This document shows positions 2,615 through 16,329 of a stretch of 34,593 nt of DNA, in pieces. The notes beneath the pieces were generated by a model. That model saw nothing but the letters and a program-made list of their open reading frames with translations, was not told the origin of the DNA and did not search any database. Positions within the stretch are counted from its first letter, which is position 1. Each line of letters opens with the position of its first letter. This DNA comes from a virus (Duplodnaviria; Caudoviricetes). The stretch is from positions 1 through 34,593 of the IMG/VR virus record IMGVR_UViG_3300033513_000035, one strand, 5' to 3'. The position numbers were made by a program, and so were the translations under genes.

Positions 2615-2781
2615 GCCTTGAACCTCATGGCGATCGACACGAGGAGGATCCACGCGCCGGCGAGGACGGACATCCCGAGGACCTCGATGTCGTCCCACGG
2701 GTATCCCTTCGCCGTCATGTACACCATCCACGGCGCGGCCACCATCACCGACCACACCGTCGCTTTAAGTAGTACCACCAT
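2602..2781 (-). CDS. Small two-transmembrane protein (59 aa)
   Basis: MVVLLKATVWSVMVAAPWMVYMTAKG...VLGMSVLAGAWILLVSIAMRFK; TGATG coupling to the primase stop. Confidence 0.7.
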   Translation of the reverse strand: MVVLLKATVWSVMVAAPWMVYMTAKGYPWDDIEVLGMSVLAGAWILLVSIAMRFKACKN

Positions 2782-5111
2782 CAGAATTCCTCCGGGAGGG
2801 GCGCGGTGTCGTCCTCGCGCACCGTCTCCCAATTCTTCGGGCCGGCGAACGCCTTGTCGAACCAGTCCCGGCACTCCTCGAGCGCCGGGAGGACGTAGAA
2901 GTACGGGCGGGGGCACGTCGCGACGCTCCCGTTCGCCCGCGTGAATGTGTACGGAGTCCGCTTCTGAATCCGTTCGTGCTTGGGGACGAGGCGCCGAAAG
3001 AGGTGGCCGAACGCGAGGGAGCTCCGCTCCCCGGTCGCGTCGCGGAAGTCCTCGAACAGGGCGATGGCGGGGACCTCCCGCTCCCACCGCTCGTGCTCCG
3101 ACAGCACGCGCCCGTCGCGGAGCTTCGCGTACCACCACTGCTCCTCGGGCGGTCGCGAGAAGTCGACCTGCACGGCGTGCTCCCACGTGGTCGGGACCTG
3201 CCGGATGTTCCATCCCTCGAGGTTCCGGTTCAGGAGGAAGTGAAGGAGGGCCTCGCGACCTCCCGAGGACATCTGCCGCTCGAGGGCTTCAAAATAGGCG
3301 AAGTCCTTGATTCTCCGGTCGACCACGTCGAGGACGAAGAAGCGGCGGTCGTCGGTGCCGACCGGGGCGACCCACTGCTCGTTGCTCGCCATGATGAGGT
3401 GGACGCAATTCGCCGAGGTCTCCGCGTTGACGCCCTTCGCCTCGATTACCAGCATCGATTCGGTGATGAGGGTCTTTAGGACGCCCTCGGCGATCTTGTC
3501 CCCGGCGTGGAACGCCTCGTCGGCGAAGAGCACTACGCAGTCGCGGAGGTGGGAATTGAACGCGCCCACGAGAAATTTTGAGTTGGCGATCTGCATGAAG
3601 TGCCGGCCCCACAGGGATCCGAAGGTCCGCGTGAAGACCCCCTTCCCCGTCCCCTGCCGGCCGCGGAGGACGACCGCGACCTCGCCCGGCTGCGCGGGAT
3701 ATTGGACGCAATTCGCCATCCAATTCAGGAGGTAGTTAGACTTCTCGATGCTCCCGGCGCAGATCGTTTCCCGGACGTGCTCGAGGTAGAGGTCGCAATT
3801 GCCGGGGCGCGCGTCGCACGCGAAGCCGCGCCACAGGTTGTAGGCGCCGTCGACCTCGCGGCCGGGGACGAAGGTCACGCGATCGTATTGCCGGCGATGG
3901 GGATGTTTGAGCCACCACTTCCCGAGGGGCATCGTGATCGGGGTGCCGTCGTCCTTGTTGCCGACCGTCACCTCGACGTTGAGGTATGATCCCTCAATGT
4001 CGGTGAAGGATTGCACGGTGAGGAGGCTCCGCTCGAGGCGGTCGTCCCGCTGCTCCTCGATGACGCGGCACTTCCCGCCGTAGTTCCGCACGACCGCGTG
4101 CCGGTCGTTCATCTTGCGGAGGTTCTCGTCCTCGCACTCCTCCCGCGCCCGTTCGATCTGCCGGAGCGCGTACCGCTCCGTCGAGCTTCCCTTCTCGAGG
4201 ACGGACTCCGAAATTTTATGATCCGGGTCGGTGATGATGCTGTAGATGTCCTCGTCCGACACGTCCGCCCGCACGAGGGCGCACACGACGGCGAACAACG
4301 CCTCGGACCTGGAGGGCCACGTCTTCTCCCCCTCGGGATCCTTGCCGTGGACGATGACGGGTCCGCACCATCGGGGGAGCTTCTCGCCGAGCTCCTCCAT
4401 CACGTCGACGCGCCGCACGTTGCCGGGGGCGACCACCTTCCGGCCGGCGAAGCCGACGTCCCCGGCCTGCGTCGGCGCCGCCTTCGTGAACTGCTTGATG
4501 TCGTACTCACGGTCGACGCAGAAGTCGATGACCTTCGCGAGGGCGAGCTTTTGCCCGCGGGCCTTCTTCTTCGCGTTGGGCCGATTGACGGTTCCGGGAA
4601 GGCGCATGATGCGGTCGACGTTGCCGGTCGCGTCCGATTGAAAGAGGGTCTCGAGTTGCGTATTGTACCGCTTCGCGTCCTCGGCAAGGGCAACGTCCCC
4701 ATTGATGGGGACGGGTTCCTTCAGCCTCCAGAATGCCTGGTATCCGCCGCCCGAGAAGATGACGCACGTCGGGGGCGGAACGCCCGCCGGGGGCTGCTTC
4801 AACGACGAGAGGATGCGCGCCTGCTCCGCATCGAGGTCCTCCCCGGCCCTCGGGTCGAGGTCGATGTGGAGCCACGCCATCGCGGCGATGTCGGCGCGCT
4901 CCGTCTTCTTCTCGACGTCCCCGCGGACCGGGTTGACCTGGAAGTAGATGTTGTGGTCGGCGCCCTTCTCCTCGAGCCACACCCGGCACGCGGCCTCCTC
5001 GCGGAAGGTCCGCGTCGTGACGGCGCGGTCCTTGATCGCGGTCAGGACCCACACCCCGTCGGGGTGGAACGCCCGGAGGAAGTTGATCGAGGTGCTATAG
5101 TTTGCTTGCAT
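2781..5111 (-). CDS. DNA primase-helicase (RepB-like primase N-terminus + SF3-type/DUF5906 helicase)
   Basis: HIDLD, SGGGYQAFW and RIMRLPGT primase motifs; Walker A GRQGTGKG, Walker B LFADE, motif C MASN. Confidence 0.9.
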   Translation of the reverse strand: MQANYSTSINFLRAFHPDGVWVLTAIKDRAVTTRTFREEAACRVWLEEKGADHNIYFQVNPVRGDVEKKTERADIAAMAWLHIDLDPRAGEDLDAEQARILSSLKQPPAGVPPPTCVIFSGGGYQAFWRLKEPVPINGDVALAEDAKRYNTQLETLFQSDATGNVDRIMRLPGTVNRPNAKKKARGQKLALAKVIDFCVDREYDIKQFTKAAPTQAGDVGFAGRKVVAPGNVRRVDVMEELGEKLPRWCGPVIVHGKDPEGEKTWPSRSEALFAVVCALVRADVSDEDIYSIITDPDHKISESVLEKGSSTERYALRQIERAREECEDENLRKMNDRHAVVRNYGGKCRVIEEQRDDRLERSLLTVQSFTDIEGSYLNVEVTVGNKDDGTPITMPLGKWWLKHPHRRQYDRVTFVPGREVDGAYNLWRGFACDARPGNCDLYLEHVRETICAGSIEKSNYLLNWMANCVQYPAQPGEVAVVLRGRQGTGKGVFTRTFGSLWGRHFMQIANSKFLVGAFNSHLRDCVVLFADEAFHAGDKIAEGVLKTLITESMLVIEAKGVNAETSANCVHLIMASNEQWVAPVGTDDRRFFVLDVVDRRIKDFAYFEALERQMSSGGREALLHFLLNRNLEGWNIRQVPTTWEHAVQVDFSRPPEEQWWYAKLRDGRVLSEHERWEREVPAIALFEDFRDATGERSSLAFGHLFRRLVPKHERIQKRTPYTFTRANGSVATCPRPYFYVLPALEECRDWFDKAFAGPKNWETVREDDTAPLPEEF

Positions 5112-6226: not shown

Positions 6227-8176
6227 TTATTTCGCCTCCCCCCACGACGGGCCGATTTCCACGTCGACCTTCGCTGGCACGTCGAGGGGGACGACGTTTC
6301 GCATGAGCTCCGCGAGGGCCTCCGCCTCCGCCCGGTCGCGGACGGAGAGGTCGAGCTCGTCGTGGATTTGAAGTTGCAGGTAGAAGCCGGCGCGGTCCGC
6401 CTCGACCATCGCCGTCTTCGTTTGGTCCGCCGAGGATCCTTGAATGATACGGTTGAGGGCCTTGTGCGCCTCGTCGAGGTGCCCGTCGACGTATCGGAAT
6501 CGGCACCGCCGGCCGGAGAGGGTCCGGACGAACCCGACCTTCTCCGCCTTGTCCTGTGCCTTGCGCGCGAGGTCGCGGACGAAGGGGACCATCGCGTGGT
6601 ATTGGTCGATGATCGCCTGCCCCTCGGGGCCCGCGAAGTGCAACGTGGACGCCTTCGCCGCCGTCATGAAGCCCTTCGCGACGAGCTTCGCGCGCCGGTC
6701 CTTCGTCTCCTCGGGCCCGAGGAGCGGGAGCCCGAGGTTCCGGCAGAGCTTCCCTCCGCCCATGCCGTAGCAAAGCCCGAGGAAGATCGCCTTCGCGTTG
6801 CCTCGAGCCTTCTTGCGGTCGGGTTCGGAGGGGAAGCATAGGTCCGCGGTCGCCTTGTGGAGGTCGAGGTCGGGGTCCGCGCGGTACCGAGCCGCCATCT
6901 CGGGCCCGCCGGGGCACCTCGTCCGGCTCGCGTAGTGCACGGTCATGCGGGGCTCCTGCCCGGAGTAATCGCACGCCGCCCACAGGAGCCCCTCCTCGGG
7001 GACGTATATCGACCGCCACATCGGACCGATTTCGGGGTCCCGCGCCGGCTGCTGTTGGAGGTTCGGGAGGACGGCGGAGAGGCGGCCGTACGCGGCGCCG
7101 TCGGAATCGTCTCCCCCCATGTTCTCGCCCCGCATCTGGTTGAAGGTGCAGTGGATGCGACCGTTCACCATGTGGCGCTCGATCGACGCGACGAACGACG
7201 TGCGGACCTTGTTGACCTTCCTCGCGCGGACGAACGCCTTCGCCGCGGGGTGCGCGATCGCCTCGAACACGTCGCGCTTCGCCGAGGGCTTGCCCGTCCT
7301 CGTCTTAGGGGGCGTCACGCCGAGGTACGCGAGGAGCCGCTGCGCCGGCTCGGGGAGCCACACCTCGCCGACCCCGATCCGGATCCCGGACCGCGCGTGG
7401 ACCTCCTCGAGGGCCTTCGCCTCCTCGGCCTCGGACCACCGGCGGACCTCGTCGAGCTTTCCCTGGTCAATCCGGACGCCCCGCCGGCGCATCTTGACGA
7501 GGACGGGGAGGACGCGGGACTCGAGGTCGTACACCCGCCATAGGTCCTGTTCTTCAATACGCCGCTCCTGGAGCCGGAGAAGCCGGAGGGGGAGTCGGAC
7601 GTCCTGCTCGGCGTAGGCGCCGATGTGTCTCGCCGGGAGCTTCCAGAGCTCCGCCTTCGGGTCGAGGCCCCACCGCTCCGCCGCCGCCCGGAGGCCGGCC
7701 TCGTCCTTCCCGGGGATGGCGTACCGCGCCGCGACGCCGTCGAGGGAGTAGTCGTCCTGGAGCTCGTCGATGAGGGGCTCCGCGACCTTGATGCAGTCCC
7801 GGAAAAATCGGGGGCGCCGGAAGGAGACCCCGGCCTCCTCGAGGAAGTCGAGGTCGTATTGCAGGTTCGCGCCGACGACGTCGCCCATGAATCCCGCCGC
7901 CTCGGTGCGGAGGTATCCGAGGACCTCGTCCTCGGATAAGTTATCCCCGGCCGCGTGCTGGATGGGAAGGTAGAACGCCGGGCCGTCCTCGATCGCGACG
8001 GAGACGCCGACGATGTACGCCCCGCGGCGCACCCCGGGGCCGAGGGTCTTGATCTTCTCGTCCCGGGTCTCGACGTCGATGGCGATGCGCTTCGCGCCGT
8101 CCCACCTCGGGAGGCGCGCCGGGGGCCGCCACGTCGATCGCGGATCAAACATGGGACGTTGGACCCAATCGCTCAT
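6227..8176 (-). CDS. polA: Family A DNA polymerase with 3'-5' exonuclease
   Basis: Exo motifs IDVET, NLQYD, YAEQD; Pol motif A DYSGQEPR, motif B RGNAKAIFLGLCYG, motif C IHDE. Confidence 0.95.
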   Translation of the reverse strand: MSDWVQRPMFDPRSTWRPPARLPRWDGAKRIAIDVETRDEKIKTLGPGVRRGAYIVGVSVAIEDGPAFYLPIQHAAGDNLSEDEVLGYLRTEAAGFMGDVVGANLQYDLDFLEEAGVSFRRPRFFRDCIKVAEPLIDELQDDYSLDGVAARYAIPGKDEAGLRAAAERWGLDPKAELWKLPARHIGAYAEQDVRLPLRLLRLQERRIEEQDLWRVYDLESRVLPVLVKMRRRGVRIDQGKLDEVRRWSEAEEAKALEEVHARSGIRIGVGEVWLPEPAQRLLAYLGVTPPKTRTGKPSAKRDVFEAIAHPAAKAFVRARKVNKVRTSFVASIERHMVNGRIHCTFNQMRGENMGGDDSDGAAYGRLSAVLPNLQQQPARDPEIGPMWRSIYVPEEGLLWAACDYSGQEPRMTVHYASRTRCPGGPEMAARYRADPDLDLHKATADLCFPSEPDRKKARGNAKAIFLGLCYGMGGGKLCRNLGLPLLGPEETKDRRAKLVAKGFMTAAKASTLHFAGPEGQAIIDQYHAMVPFVRDLARKAQDKAEKVGFVRTLSGRRCRFRYVDGHLDEAHKALNRIIQGSSADQTKTAMVEADRAGFYLQLQIHDELDLSVRDRAEAEALAELMRNVVPLDVPAKVDVEIGPSWGEAK

Positions 8177-8463
8177 GCGTCTTTCTTCACGAGCTCGCGC
8201 GCGCGATCGAGGACTGCGTCGTTGTAGTAGTCTCCGGTGTCGAGGGCCTTTAACAGATCACGAACGCACGCCTCGATCGCGGCGATGCGTGCTTTTAGCT
8301 TTTCCATGTCGGAAACGGGAACAAGAAAATAGGTGCCTGGAGAAGGACACCCGGCGAAACAACAACTACCGAAGTCATCTGATTCTCTCTGAAAATCACA
8401 ACGAACACAACGCCCTATGTCGTGTCCGCTTCCTGGAATTTCGATTTGTTTATACTCGCTCAT
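8173..8463 (-). CDS. Cys-rich hypothetical protein (96 aa, MSEYKQIEIPG...)
   Basis: ATG 1 nt after the upstream stop; CVRC...CCFAGC; stop overlaps the polymerase start; visibly lower GC. Confidence 0.7.
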   Translation of the reverse strand: MSEYKQIEIPGSGHDIGRCVRCDFQRESDDFGSCCFAGCPSPGTYFLVPVSDMEKLKARIAAIEACVRDLLKALDTGDYYNDAVLDRARELVKKDA

Positions 8464-8464
8464 T

Positions 8465-8806
8465 CTACTTTTCCCACTCCGGCTTCTCGCCCCGCGCCGC
8501 GGCGCGCTCCGTCTCGATCTCCCGCTGGAGGAGGGCGAGGGCGCGCCAGGCGACCTTCGCGGAGTGCCGTTGTCCATCGACGTCGCGCTTCCCGCGGTCG
8601 AGGAGGTGTCGGACGAGGGCGTCGGCCTCGTCGCGGGACTTCTCCTTCGCCCAATGCAGGGGTTGACCGGGGTTGTGCTGATCGTTTCCCGCCTTCGACA
8701 CCCGCGCGACCTCGGCGAGGGCGTCGGGGAAGTAGTCGAGGACGCCGGTACAGATCGGCGTCGCCTTGCGCGCCGCCGCGTCCCCGGTGATGTGTACGTC
8801 ATCCAT
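8465..8806 (-). CDS. dATP/dGTP diphosphohydrolase domain protein (DUF5664-like)
   Basis: RKATPI.TGVLDYFPDALAEVARVS..GNDQHNPG.PLHW....S.D.ADALVRHL...H.AKVAWRALA pattern. Confidence 0.85.
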   Translation of the reverse strand: MDDVHITGDAAARKATPICTGVLDYFPDALAEVARVSKAGNDQHNPGQPLHWAKEKSRDEADALVRHLLDRGKRDVDGQRHSAKVAWRALALLQREIETERAAARGEKPEWEK

Positions 8807-9311
8807 CGGTCCGCTCCCAATGGTAGTCCTTCAGGAACAGGGCGACGGCCTGCGGGAGGTCCTTCGCCTCCTGCTCGAACCACGCCTCGAGCCATGCCAC
8901 GATGCCGGAGACGTGGTCGTTTCCCAGGTTGAGCTGGTCGTGGCACCACATCCACAATTCCACCTTGTCGATCGCCCGGAGCCATGCCCGCTCCTCGGGC
9001 CGGAGCTCCTCGCCGAGGATTCCGATCTTGCGCTCGACGTCCCGCGTCATCGCGCGGAACGAATCCTTCAATCGGGGGTCGACGTCGACGACGGAGCCGG
9101 GGAGGTCCCCGGTGTACCGCTCCGCGACGTCGTGGAGGAGGACGGCGGTCGTCAACCGCTGCGACGCCTTCGGGCACAGGACGTGCAGGATGGCGAGCAT
9201 GTCGAACGTGTGCTTGCCCACGGTGTATTCCCCGGGGTACGGGACGGTGTGGCACCGCCGGACGTTGCCGCCCTCGCGCAACCGAAGGATCTTCAGGGTC
9301 TTTTCATCCAC
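8799..9311 (-). CDS. HD-domain nucleotide phosphohydrolase (YfbR/DatZ-like)
   Basis: VRRCHT, VGKHT, LLHDVAE..TGDLP and IDKVE; metal ligands H..HD..D intact. Confidence 0.85.
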   Translation of the reverse strand: MDEKTLKILRLREGGNVRRCHTVPYPGEYTVGKHTFDMLAILHVLCPKASQRLTTAVLLHDVAERYTGDLPGSVVDVDPRLKDSFRAMTRDVERKIGILGEELRPEERAWLRAIDKVELWMWCHDQLNLGNDHVSGIVAWLEAWFEQEAKDLPQAVALFLKDYHWERTDG

Positions 9312-10089
9312 GTCTCCTCCTCTCGAGCCACGCTCGACCCGCGACGAGCCAGTCGTAATTTCCCGCGAGGAGCTTCGCCGCCTCGCCGGCGCGCGACGGG
9401 GTATTGTCGTACGCCCTCCACGCCGCGCGCATCGGGAGGGCCACCCGCCGGATGAATCCGCTCTCGTATCCGAGGGCCGGCCCCTCGGACGCGAACATCC
9501 GGAGCTCGGCGAGCCACCGATCCGGCGCGACGTCGACCACGGAATGCGCGACCACCCCGTCGTCGTATGGACCGCCGCCCGCCGGAAATTCCGTGATGAG
9601 GGGGACGATCCGCGCCGCCGCCTTCGCGTCGGCGAACCACATCGTCGCCGTCGCGAAGAACTTCCCGACCCGCCGCCCGAGGAGGGCCGCGATGTACTTT
9701 TGCAAGAGGACGGTCGTGATGTAACATCCCTGCGATAGGACGTTGAGGGCGACCGCGGACATGTGAATTCCGACCCGCCCGTCGGAATCGATGAACGGCA
9801 TGACCAGGGACGTCTTTCCCGCGAACGCCGAGACGGCGCGCAGATCCCGCACCCTCGCGGCGTCGTCCTCGTTCCACAGGAGCAACGCGTCGAGCGCCGA
9901 CGTCAGCGTGGTGAACGGGTTGTCGTCGAGCTCCGGCCAGAACGCGACGGCCTCCTCGGGGGATCCGATCTTCATCATCGCGGGCTCGTTCGCCGCGACG
10001 AGGTCCGACATCGGGCGCGAGTCCCGGAGGACGGTGCGCGCGACGTCCGGTACGATGGTGTGAAAATTCCTGCCGTGAACGAAGAACAT
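9304..10089 (-). CDS. Degenerate thymidylate synthase / dUMP hydroxymethylase-like protein, probably inactive
   Basis: GRNFH, EP, FWPELDDNPF, LQKYIAALLG..VG, F.RRVA.PM..AW and DWL.A...WL.RR match YuA-type TS homologues as I recall them. The PC, RS-D and H-Y catalytic motifs are not visible. Confidence 0.65.
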   Translation of the reverse strand: MFFVHGRNFHTIVPDVARTVLRDSRPMSDLVAANEPAMMKIGSPEEAVAFWPELDDNPFTTLTSALDALLLWNEDDAARVRDLRAVSAFAGKTSLVMPFIDSDGRVGIHMSAVALNVLSQGCYITTVLLQKYIAALLGRRVGKFFATATMWFADAKAAARIVPLITEFPAGGGPYDDGVVAHSVVDVAPDRWLAELRMFASEGPALGYESGFIRRVALPMRAAWRAYDNTPSRAGEAAKLLAGNYDWLVAGRAWLERRRRG

Positions 10090-10090
10090 G

Positions 10091-10324
10091 CTACCTCTCC
10101 ACCTCGACCTCCTCGGTGCGCCCCCCGAAGTCGAGGACGAGCCGGGCCCTGCCGGCGAGGACCTCGGGGGCGGCGCGGTCGTACAGGCGGACCGCGCGCG
10201 CGACGAAGTACGCGGGGGACGGGGACCTCGTCACCCGCGAGAGGTGGAGGATGCGATCGACCACCTCCCGCGGGAGCTCGAGGGCGAGCCCGACGACGTC
10301 GTCACGCTTTAGCGGCCTTCGCAT
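10091..10324 (-). CDS. Ribbon-helix-helix-like DNA-binding protein
   Basis: Alternating strand LALELP followed by two helices (EVVDRILHLSRV / PAYFVARAVRLY). Confidence 0.55.
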   Translation of the reverse strand: MRRPLKRDDVVGLALELPREVVDRILHLSRVTRSPSPAYFVARAVRLYDRAAPEVLAGRARLVLDFGGRTEEVEVER

Positions 10325-10562
10325 TCTTCCTCTTCTTGTAGAGCAGGAAGATGTTCTGCGCCAGCATCGCGGCGCCGAGGATCGCCTCCCCGAGGCCGGG
10401 GACGAAGGAGTCCGCGATCGGGGCGACGTACTTCGCCCCCTTGACGGCCTGCGAATCGCCGCCCCCCTCGGGCTGCCCGAGGAGCTTCTCGACCGCGGCG
10501 CACCCCGACACGAGGGCGAGCACCGCGACGAGGGTCAACAACAACGCGAAAGTGGTTTTCAT
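10302..10562 (-). CDS. Lipoprotein (86 aa) with a second C-terminal hydrophobic segment
   Basis: MKTT + hydrophobic stretch + lipobox VSG-C; GGAGGT RBS; C-terminal AILGAAMLAQNIFLLY followed by KKRK. Confidence 0.8.
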   Translation of the reverse strand: MKTTFALLLTLVAVLALVSGCAAVEKLLGQPEGGGDSQAVKGAKYVAPIADSFVPGLGEAILGAAMLAQNIFLLYKKRKNAKAAKA

Positions 10563-10605: not shown

Positions 10606-10634
10606 ATTGTACACCCTCGGTGACGTTTCGTCAA
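10606..10634 (-). promoter_or_regulatory. Sigma70-type promoter TTGACG-N17-TACAAT
   Basis: Near-consensus hexamers with a 17-nt spacer, 43 nt upstream of the lipoprotein start. Confidence 0.8.
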
Positions 10635-11083
10635 GCCTTTTTCCAGGTTTTACCACTCTTGATGTGACAAATCGCCGCGTGGGTCACTGCGAAGTCCCGC
10701 GCTATGTCCGTTACCCGGTCACCCAACATTAACCGTTTCTTGATGCTTCGTACCTGATCGATGGAGAGTTTTCCGTATTGTCCTTGACGCTTTCTTTTCC
10801 ACATGTCCCGAATGTTGTCGGCATGGGTTCCGGCTTCAAGATGTTGAGGGTTTACGCATCGGGGGTTGTCGCATCGATGGCGGATTTCGATAGAAGCCGG
10901 AAGCGACGCGGGGTCTATCGCGCGTGCAAGACAGAACGAGAATCGGTGCGCGTAAATCTGTCTTCTCGGTCGCGAGAGCCTGAAGGATCCATATTCTCCG
11001 CCTCGGCCGCCGGCCCGGCCGGCGGTCCATTCCCAACAATCATCGGGGCCGCGTCGATCGACCTTGTCCCAGAATCGTTTCAC
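10631..11083 (-). CDS. HNH homing endonuclease with C-terminal HTH
   Basis: RFWDKVD...CWEW...YG.F...AHRFS...RHRCDNPRCVNPQHLEAGTHADNIRDM; lower GC than flanks. Confidence 0.92.
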   Translation of the reverse strand: MKRFWDKVDRRGPDDCWEWTAGRAGGRGGEYGSFRLSRPRRQIYAHRFSFCLARAIDPASLPASIEIRHRCDNPRCVNPQHLEAGTHADNIRDMWKRKRQGQYGKLSIDQVRSIKKRLMLGDRVTDIARDFAVTHAAICHIKSGKTWKKA

Positions 11084-12264
11084 GCGATGACCGTCACTTT
11101 CTCAATTGCACGGGTCAACGATGTGTACCTCCATCGGTTCGCCTCGGCGCGGAAGACCCCGGCCTCGTCGACCACCACTACCTCGGGCCACTGCGACCCC
11201 TGCGCCTTGTGGACGGTTAGGGCGTAGCCGTAGTCGAACTCGGCCGCCTCCCGGCGGAGGAAGTGCTCGATCTCGCGCCCCTCGAACGGGGCCCGGTGCA
11301 CGGGGATGGTGAGCCGGCCGAGGTCGTCCTCGATCGTGAGCTCGACGAAGTCCGAGCACGCCGCCCCCCGGTGGACCACGCCCCATATCGCCCCGTTGAG
11401 GAGCCCTACGTCGTGTATGTTTCTCAAACACACGAGGCGCTCCCCCGCCTCGGGGAGCTCCGCGAGAAAGCCCATCCGGCGCCGGCGCGCCGCGTTCGCC
11501 CGCCGGCGGGTCTCGTTCTTCCCGACGAGGATCTGGGTCTCCGGCCCAACCGTCAAGGGATCGAAGTCCCCCGGGGCGACGACCCGGCTCGAGCCGTACT
11601 CCCCCCGCGCGAGGCTACCGCCCTCGCGGACGATCGTCGCCATGTGGATGATGGGGTTGTCCGCGGCCTGCCGATGAATCTCCGACAGGAACGCGTCGGG
11701 CTCGCGCCGCGTGAAGAAGCCGGCGCCGTAGACCGGAGGGAGCTGCGCCGGGTCGCCGAGGACGAGGATGGGGACCTCGAACGACAGGAGGTCGTTCGCC
11801 ACCCGCTCGTCGACCATGCTGCATTCGTCGATCACGAGGAGGTCCGCATCCCGGATCCGGGAATCGGGGTTCAATTCAAAGATGGGCCTCCCGACCCGCT
11901 TTCGCTCCTCGCGGATCTCCGCGTCGAGGTCCGCGAGGAGCTCGGGGTCGGGAACGTCCTTCTTCTGCTCTTCTTGGGCCGCGTCGATGAGGCAATCGAG
12001 GCGCCATCGACCGTGCTCGGCGACGTGATAGATGAGAGAGTGGATCGTCGACGCGTCGGCGCACCCCGCCCGGCGCATCACGTGCGCCGCCTTGCCGGTG
12101 AACGCGGCGAAGATCACCCGCCCCGCGCCCTCGGCGAGGTGCCGCGCGATCGTGGTCTTCCCGGTCCCGGCGTAGCCGGCCAGGTAAAACCACGGCCGGT
12201 CGCCGGCGGCGAGCCATCGCCCTACGGCGTCGAGGGCCTCGGATTGTTGGGGGGAGAAATTCAT
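11080..12264 (-). CDS. RecD/Dda-like SF1B DNA helicase
   Basis: GYAGTGKTT, AFTGKAA, TIHSLIY, IDECSMV, GDPAQLPPV, YALTVHKAQGSQW, YTSLTRA. Confidence 0.93.
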   Translation of the reverse strand: MNFSPQQSEALDAVGRWLAAGDRPWFYLAGYAGTGKTTIARHLAEGAGRVIFAAFTGKAAHVMRRAGCADASTIHSLIYHVAEHGRWRLDCLIDAAQEEQKKDVPDPELLADLDAEIREERKRVGRPIFELNPDSRIRDADLLVIDECSMVDERVANDLLSFEVPILVLGDPAQLPPVYGAGFFTRREPDAFLSEIHRQAADNPIIHMATIVREGGSLARGEYGSSRVVAPGDFDPLTVGPETQILVGKNETRRRANAARRRRMGFLAELPEAGERLVCLRNIHDVGLLNGAIWGVVHRGAACSDFVELTIEDDLGRLTIPVHRAPFEGREIEHFLRREAAEFDYGYALTVHKAQGSQWPEVVVVDEAGVFRAEANRWRYTSLTRAIEKVTVIA

Positions 12265-15663: not shown

Positions 15664-15745
15664 AGGGCGCACCCTGTAACGCCGGGGCGCCCGCCCCGCG
15701 GCACCCGTGAGTCTCGGATGCTACTGCCCGATTATGACGCCGGGC
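15664..15745 (-). ncRNA. Candidate structured leader RNA, copy B
   Basis: Three predicted stems between the promoter at 15764 and the RBS; shares CCGGCGTC, CGCGGGG-N4-CGCCCCGGCG and ACAGGGYGCG with copy A. Confidence 0.5.
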
Positions 15746-16329
15746 CGACGCGTTTCAGTCCCTATTGTACCATTTTCGGCCGGGGTGTCAAGCTCGTTCC
15801 CCCACGCGTCCCACGAAGCCCTACGCTGCCGCGCGAAGAGCTCCAGGTACGGACCGTCGTACAGGGCCTCGATGCGGCCGTACGCCGCCTCCGGCTTCGT
15901 GGAGTGACGCGCCACGCGCGGGGCGGTGATGACTTGGAGGACGTTCGTCGCCTCGGGCCGGCGGGGCCGCTTGCCCCGGATCCCCAAGACGCACATCTCC
16001 GCCCCCGACCGCGTGTAGAAGCCGAGCCCGGAGTAGGGCCGGCCGTTCGGCCACGTCTTGTTCCACACGAGGGCGATCGTCACGACGCGGAAGCCCCACG
16101 CCTTGAAGATGGGGACGTGCTTCCCCTCGGCGAGGAGCGGAGCCGGGACCCACATGAAGAGGGCACAATCCGATGCCCCCACCTCCCGGACCGGGAGGGC
16201 GGCGATCTCCGCGATGCCCATGCAGGGGTATTGATCCGCGGCGAGTCCGGAGAGCCCCCGGCGCACCTGGAACTTCCACGGAGGATCCGCGAGGATCACG
16301 CGATATTGTGTGCCGGTCGGGAAGTCCAT
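15721..16329 (-). CDS. MT-A70 family adenine methyltransferase
   Basis: ILADPPW, Y.CM...EIAALPV, LFMW, AWGF, GLGFYTR, HSTKP, ELFAR, WGNE. Confidence 0.92.
   Translation of the reverse strand: MDFPTGTQYRVILADPPWKFQVRRGLSGLAADQYPCMGIAEIAALPVREVGASDCALFMWVPAPLLAEGKHVPIFKAWGFRVVTIALVWNKTWPNGRPYSGLGFYTRSGAEMCVLGIRGKRPRRPEATNVLQVITAPRVARHSTKPEAAYGRIEALYDGPYLELFARQRRASWDAWGNELDTPAENGTIGTETRRPGVIIGQ
15764..15791 (-). promoter_or_regulatory. Sigma70-type promoter TTGACA-N16-TACAAT with extended -10 (TGG)
   Basis: Perfect -35 and TGnTACAAT, embedded in the non-conserved tail of the MT-A70 gene. Confidence 0.75.

Follow-up and report, generated by a model that had tools for sequence, protein, structure and literature searches.

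Why would a phage keep, among its replication genes, an open gene for an enzyme that has lost its active site? The question is raised by a 261-aa reading frame in a stretch of 34,593 nucleotides (the window, by which we mean the whole stretch analysed), which lies within a 58,968-base contig and is part of a YuA-like (Mesyanzhinovviridae-like) phage. The gene order, all on the minus strand, is tail genes, SNF2 helicase, gp33, gp34, Dda helicase, the gene in question and then HD, followed by a dATP/dGTP diphosphohydrolase, Pol A, a VRR-NUC-like gene and a primase-helicase. The features needed for the argument are these, with the basis of each assignment in brackets:

9304..10089, minus strand: dead homologue of dUMP hydroxymethylases, 261 aa, with a predicted MilA-like thymidylate synthase (TS) fold (homology, predicted fold, site mapping)
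9304..9534, minus strand: its C-terminal helical domain, codons 186-261, under the strongest constraint, with the patch G207/R214 (YuA G277/R284) (model, conservation, substitutions)
9883..9918, minus strand: its 'NPF' helix, residues 58-69, kept alongside the helical domain in 5/5 mini forms (model, mini-form comparison)
9628..9810, minus strand: what was its catalytic core (residues about 94-154), with other residues at the catalytic positions and the sheet retained in the prediction (model, site mapping)
8799..9311, minus strand: HD-domain nucleotide phosphohydrolase, YuA gp18-like, motifs intact (family match)
8465..8806, minus strand: dATP/dGTP diphosphohydrolase N-terminal domain protein (PF18909, E 6e-12)
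6227..8176, minus strand: family A DNA polymerase of YuA type, 51% to YuA gp21, Klenow-sized, candidate partner (family match, alignment)
2781..5111, minus strand: primase-helicase, YuA gp26-like, alternative candidate partner (family match)
11080..12264, minus strand: Dda-like helicase, upstream edge of the interval that lacks RNR and the modification cluster (family match)
1577-2755: adenine methyltransferase, D12 class (family match)
15721-16329: adenine methyltransferase, MT-A70 (family match)

The frame has no internal stop, a purine run containing GGAG sits upstream of its ATG, and it ends inside the HD gene, which it overlaps by 8 nt. Its codon use (GC3 0.88, CAI 0.64) is like that of the neighbouring replication genes (GC3 0.84-0.91, CAI 0.57-0.74). 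The original prediction, made from the letters alone, had described just such an intact frame with a ribosome binding site that runs into the HD gene, and this description stands.

What does the gene encode? The protein matches the PHROG thymidylate synthase family phrog_5131 (E 6e-9), and tblastn matched 84 phage records, with Yuavirus thymidylate synthases at the top. YuA gp17 aligns with it end to end, at 26% identity over 335 columns (pairwise E 2e-18). It has no match in Pfam or NCBIfam, and a sequence search of solved structures using the single window protein returned chance matches only. The AlphaFold model (pLDDT 93, pTM 0.90) presents the central sheet and flanking helices of the TS fold superfamily. 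Its best structural match is MilA (Z 20.9, rmsd 2.9, 239 residues aligned, 12% identity), and further matches are the dCMP hydroxylase AfhB (Z 14.6, residues 1-166) and ThyA (Z 12.8). The extra C-terminal helical domain of the MilA/YuA subgroup is present in the model as well. Going by alignment and predicted structure, the gene encodes a dUMP-hydroxymethylase homologue with a TS fold, in agreement with the kinship to YuA/M6-type enzymes that had been proposed from its motifs.

The active site is a different matter. None of the seven YuA residues C152, R173, S174, D176, N185, H215 and Y217 is kept in the window protein, the last two belonging to the H-x-Y motif, which we take to be a motif of the active site. 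R30, R130 and R131, to which we assign a presumed phosphate-binding role, are all replaced, and about 49 aa that include the YGxR segment are deleted relative to YuA gp17. The set that identifies an active dUMP hydroxymethylase (the PC-motif Cys, R-S-N-D, the specificity Asn, H-x-Y and the phosphate-binding Arg pair) is missing, and so is the combination expected of a flavin-dependent 5-hydroxy-dCMP synthase, Cys146 kept with D169N. A catalytic cysteine might have been repositioned; the only Cys of the protein, C122, falls at the column of the specificity Asn and is not common to its relatives. The loss claimed from the sequence motif by motif (PC, RS-x-D, specificity Asn, H-x-Y, YGxR segment) is thus seen in full, and by its residues the window protein, which has none of the catalytic positions of the hydroxymethylases, is catalytically dead. 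For orientation, the YuA columns C152, S174, D176 and N185 correspond to E. coli C146, S167, D169 and N177 in the section of PMC13326640 that deals with these positions.

The surroundings have changed too. The dead gene occupies the position of the dUMP hydroxymethylase genes YuA gp17 and M6 gp58, before HD and Pol A. Within the 34.6-kb window, YuA gp7-15 (including RNR) and gp23 have no tblastn match; genes for RNR, kinase, amino acid:DNA transferase, PLP, rSAM and dCMP deaminase are absent at the YuA positions; and the pair that would signal M6-type hypermodification, a 5-hmdU DNA kinase with an amino acid:DNA transferase nearby, is not found.

Catalytic death is not unique to the window protein. 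Among 1.84 billion cluster representatives a protein search found 120 matches, two of them spurious (the repeat proteins P0101 and P0102); 98 are 200-420 aa long, and 91 of these span both ends. Judged by their catalytic residues, 46 of the 91 whole-length relatives keep at least 6/7, and 45 lack the Cys or keep at most 3. Most of the 45 keep 0-2 residues, with P0095, P0034 and P0012 only lightly damaged, and a few could be enzymes with altered chemistry. Across 52 dead forms no new residue has become fixed in the site, and what stays are N-terminal positions and the C-terminal helical domain. By these residue counts the degeneration is family-wide. Separate searches for close relatives gave one other match at the protein level, and none among viral contigs. 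Eight matches (P0005, P0006, P0008, P0011, P0034, P0077, P0091, P0095) are full-length (320-350 aa) and keep YGxR and some arginines without the catalytic Cys; they may be early-stage deaths or enzymes with other chemistry. The long matches P0040, P0046, P0071, P0049 and P0068 comprise intein-containing hydroxymethylases, an Nmad5 fusion and one unannotated 280-aa extension.

Because dead-form alignments are too variable for a pattern search, we gathered genomic contexts through the polymerase. The 261 loci with a polymerase form 175 clusters at 90%, of which 74 were used for the tree (those with 40.5% identity or more to the polymerase of the window, together with L137, L144 and L218; at least 450 aa aligned) and the other 101 were dropped. 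The state 'none' was scored only where 6 kb upstream or Dda was in view. L218 (intact), L143 and L253 (dead) and L138 (none, classical ThyA only) were scored by hand, and protein-only matches (P0003-P0121) stay outside the locus counts. We observe 38 loci with an intact enzyme, 13 with a dead form, 5 with a mini form (below) and 18 with none. A profile that detects all 5 minis at E<1e-10 finds no TS remnant in those 18, and 4 records at least 90% complete have no detectable form of the gene.

Matches to YuA gp10-15 occur in 36/38 intact loci and in 0/13 dead, 0/5 mini and 0/18 empty ones, so death of the enzyme goes with loss of the modification cluster. It had been predicted that the protein was retained after thymidine hypermodification was lost, and this distribution bears that out. 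How often did it happen? Intact versus degenerate requires 12 changes on the polymerase tree, 10 of them forced by the starred branches of this quick tree, as opposed to only 3-5 intact/dead changes on the TS tree, a gap that may be due to long-branch attraction or to an old dead gene having been exchanged; independent deaths number between about 3 and 12. The starred clade of the window alone holds every state: intact (L177/L003), dead (the window), mini (L018) and none (L168).

Several of these loci deserve a remark of their own. L003 (1975-3042) has an intact enzyme and the window's gene order, but its locus lacks both modification genes and dCMP deaminase, and it may represent the state just before death. 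At L138 (7391-8209), a classical ThyA replaces the hydroxymethylase beside a YuA-type polymerase. L005 (8446-9219), L008 (8461-9189) and L013 (3830-4846) contain ORFs that resemble degenerate YuA gp14-type (aGPT-Pplase/kinase helical) genes and adjoin dead or missing TS genes; they may be another piece of the modification cluster that has been kept as a remnant.

If modified thymine had protected the DNA, did methylation take its place? Two adenine methyltransferases in the window had been proposed as replacements, and both are confirmed by family matches. The replacement itself is only a trend: across 28 records, any of four methyltransferase families occurs in 1/14 with an intact TS, 3/7 degenerate and 2/7 TS-less ones, that is 1/14 against 5/14 dead, mini or TS-less (Fisher p about 0.16). 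The sole intact-TS record with a methyltransferase is L003, the near relative of the window, so MT-A70 predates the death of the enzyme in this lineage.

Is the dead gene kept by selection, as had been claimed, or is it simply still open? For the dead pair L005/L008, dN/dS is 0.38 (bootstrap 0.25-0.55) at dS 0.42, and for L036/L112 it is 0.22 (0.15-0.31), intervals that both exclude 1; L143/L195 gives 0.5, and L141/L144 is saturated. The polymerase of the L005/L008 pair has a dN/dS of 0.11-0.14, by which measure the constraint on the dead form is relaxed but real. A close relative of the window gene, found in sediment runs X7 and X11 of one study, has 87 differences in 779 nt without any indel (~89% DNA identity). 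We scored codon position only, among the 40 differences listed, which lie in codons 123-246. Fifteen of the 19 listed differences in core codons 123-164 fall at first or second position and affect 13/42 codons, as compared with 2 of 9 in helical-domain codons 186-259, where 2/74 codons are affected (p 3e-5 against the core); the other 7 of these 9 listed differences are at third positions (p 0.008). In the lineage of the window, the old catalytic core changes freely and the helical domain is held. In L036/L112 this contrast is missing, with 0.29 for the helical domain and 0.31 for the core. The window gene is a real pseudoenzyme under purifying selection, as had been supposed.

The mini forms carry the same division to its end. 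Five loci (L012, L018, L114, L137 and L185) encode proteins of about 125-150 aa that are in-frame reductions to the NPF helix and the helical domain, with the whole TS sheet gone, a state that the polymerase tree accounts for with 4 changes. For the L018 mini a stand-alone fold is predicted (pLDDT 83), and no other TS was found in the complete 64.5-kb L018 record. A fold search with the mini model finds generic helical matches only (best Z 5.6, TPR-like) and, in the viral library, none at E<0.001; an Atlas search with the helical domain gave nothing usable. Of the positions conserved in the clade, the window protein retains 86% of 21 in the helical domain, 25% of 36 in the core, 10% of 31 in the deleted segment and 50% at the N-terminus; the 13 dead forms keep on average 57% (helical domain), 27% (core) and 13% (deleted segment). 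Within the helical domain, G277 and R284 (YuA numbering) are found in 5/5 minis, in 0.69 and 0.62 of dead forms, and among intact enzymes in 0.71 and 0.45 of those beside YuA-type polymerases but in 0.25 and 0.17 or less of the 12 beside more distant ones. The two residues appear to form a clade-specific patch, dispensable for the fold and probably exposed at the surface. To be held with YuA-type polymerases and rare beside distant ones is what one expects of a surface that meets a clade-specific partner. In the pages of PMC5175136 that describe it, the extra domain of MilA is distant from the active site and has no function assigned to it, and the authors supposed that it aids folding. A folding aid would not outlast deletion of the rest of the protein, so the minis imply that the helical domain has a function of its own. 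The mini of L185 (9534-9932) bridges the gap left by the TS sheet with a Cys-rich CxxC...CxxC linker, possibly a zinc site.

What could that function be? We propose that the helical domain is a protein-binding module, probably for the phage's own replication machinery, and we put the probability of this reading at about one half. The intact YuA/M6-type enzyme would already have had two jobs, 5-hmdUMP synthesis and docking via the extra domain; in a lineage that returned to ordinary thymine, the enzyme half would decay and the docking half stay, and later some lineages would dispense with the docking half too. Docking might serve processivity, loading or fork assembly. As to the partner, our best guess is the adjacent family A polymerase, a tentative choice well short of even odds. 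In its alignment to Klenow this polymerase shows no large insert in the thumb, and a Klenow-sized polymerase of that kind may need an accessory factor. Where neighbouring genes have been deleted the gene still precedes the polymerase, at a distance of at most 35 nt in 5/18 degenerate loci, a closeness that can follow simply from deletion of the intervening genes, in loci that were all fetched via the polymerase.

Other observations temper the replisome proposal. MilA, a cellular enzyme without a replisome role, carries the same domain, which counts against it. With 18 of 74 polymerase clusters lacking any form, the gene is not obligatory. When alignment columns are contrasted between loci with and without the gene, no clear partner emerges: the best polymerase value is 0.46, with the 95% level of the shuffles at 0.44, and six other neighbours stay within their shuffles. 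Paired coevolution by mutual information with six neighbours gives nothing above shuffles, at the low power of 18-56 pairs, and a weak search among the longer homologues found no fusion to the polymerase.

Which other explanations would account for a retained dead enzyme? The helical domain might bind a host protein, for instance blunting a defence or redirecting host metabolism, and not the replisome. Patchy retention, with outright loss in those 18 clusters, would fit an accessory role facing the host, as would the moderate dN/dS and the lack of a partner signal from phage neighbours; we still find this unlikely, given that the same G/R patch recurs across very divergent phages from different samples and presumably different hosts, and that in none of the 6 whole records with a match does the gene stand outside the replication operon. 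A slowly decaying pseudogene, open only for translational coupling to the genes downstream, is quite improbable. There is a graded series from intact through dead and mini to absent even in the window's clade, the old core has the near-neutral pattern described above, and 87 random substitutions leave no stop 9% of the time, so that an open frame alone proves little. Decay does not predict the dN/dS intervals or the third-position excess in the helical domain, nor that the frame stays open in L141/L144 despite saturated dS and in L005/L117/L253 across polymerases 62-67% alike, nor that deletions repeatedly spare the same two elements, the NPF helix and the helical domain.

The reading of the original prediction as a scaffold or regulator of the overlapping HD nucleotidase fares worse. 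The HD protein is YfbR-like and intact, with all near-invariant metal residues kept, the genes overlap in the window, and HD accompanies 32/38 intact and 5/13 full-fold dead forms. It is nevertheless absent from 13/18 degenerate loci, including 5/5 minis, and from 5/5 records at least 90% complete that have a degenerate form (it is also lacking in 2 of the 4 near-complete records tested that have an intact TS, and a different YfbR-like gene is found close by in L012), its loss accompanies degeneration in about 7/10 independent pairs (median p 0.016), and it persists in 4/18 TS-less loci. HD is not the partner in general, and we give such a role only a slight chance. In the part of PMC8989533 on phages with hmU, dTTPase and dTMPase serve the modification pathway, which fits the loss of HD after the enzyme dies. 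A second group of ideas, very unlikely as a whole, keeps a role for the core: poisoning host ThyA as a dominant-negative partner, a nucleotide sponge, or an enzyme with new chemistry. The model of the window protein still has the sheet that makes up the TS dimer interface in PMC5175136, other proteins put the TS fold to a new use, as in the flavin-dependent dCMP hydroxylases (treated in part of PMC13326640) to which the second fold match AfhB belongs, and C122 sits at the specificity-Asn column. The phosphate-binding arginines and catalytic residues are lost in 52 dead forms with no conserved replacements, and the core is the fastest-changing part. The suggestion of a dominant-negative ThyA inhibitor fails with the five minis, which have no dimer sheet, and a phage with ordinary thymine would have little reason to block ThyA; the sponge fails likewise, with the substrate-binding residues gone and the minis without a site. 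Against new chemistry, the flavin enzymes in that part of PMC13326640 keep Cys146, and relatives do not share C122. T4 carries a thymidylate synthase in its baseplate. A virion structural component would account for retention without catalysis; the gene belongs to the replication operon, well away from the tail genes, and no result points to the virion, which makes this the faintest prospect of all.

How does the replisome-binding proposal compare with known systems? The closest are the Yuavirus dUMP hydroxymethylases (YuA gp17, M6 gp58; PHROG 5131), with the same gene position, 26% identity and the same C-terminal helical domain; from these the window protein differs by its 0/7 catalytic residues, the deletion of about 49 aa and, over the 34.6-kb window, the absence of modification genes. 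The CMP hydroxymethylase MilA (PDB 5jnh, 5b6d) is alike over the 239 residues, including the extra five-helix domain, and is an active cellular enzyme in the account taken from PMC5175136, unlike the window protein. The flavin-dependent dCMP hydroxylases (AfhB, RB69 gp48) likewise put the TS fold to new use, but the part of PMC13326640 about them has the catalytic Cys and substrate site kept, and the AfhB match excludes the helical domain. Enzyme folds do serve as polymerase accessory factors: thioredoxin with T7 polymerase, PolG2 of polymerase gamma and the poxvirus E4/D4 uracil glycosylase are cases given in a portion of PMC13697223. These offer a working analogy between unrelated folds, and their polymerase binding is shown where that of the window protein is guessed.

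Phage base-modification systems were reportedly treated by Iyer et al. 2013. Our literature searches, which covered the main texts of openly available papers, found no inactive or truncated phage TS homologues, and the dead and mini forms appear to be new. Put in its strongest form, which we hold as possible at best, the helical domain of YuA/M6-type enzymes would serve the phage's family A polymerase as an accessory subunit so far unrecognised, coupling the supply of modified nucleotides to the fork, and after the loss of modified thymine the enzyme would repeatedly have been pared to a ~125-aa stand-alone replication factor. A protein family born from an enzyme would then have been caught at every stage. 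If the replisome reading is true, a well-studied class of phage DNA-modification enzymes hides a second function. The series from enzyme to pseudoenzyme to single domain is a rare and naturally repeated one, and it gives an entry point to a domain without an assigned role even in the solved MilA structure; in the cultured Pseudomonas phages YuA and M6, the intact enzyme carries the same patch. There is also a practical consequence: PHROG labels all forms 'thymidylate synthase', so that such phages would be wrongly predicted to carry modified thymine.

A few features of the window remain to be recorded. CTAG is absent from all of it (0 seen, 13 expected). Two small genes precede the dead gene at 10091-10562 (-), one of about 86 aa that resembles a lipoprotein by eye and one of about 75 aa, neither with a family match, and look-alikes of both occur in the same order in L003 (the first by tblastn) and L018 (by eye). 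The interval between diphosphohydrolase and polymerase, 8177-8497, has 41 different letters in its place in the close relative, so the small gene there is dispensable. Finally, an HNH endonuclease gene at 10631-11083 (-) has alien codon use (GC3 0.58, CAI 0.29), and the close-relative contig in run X7 skips 10637-11125, which identifies it as a recent mobile insertion.
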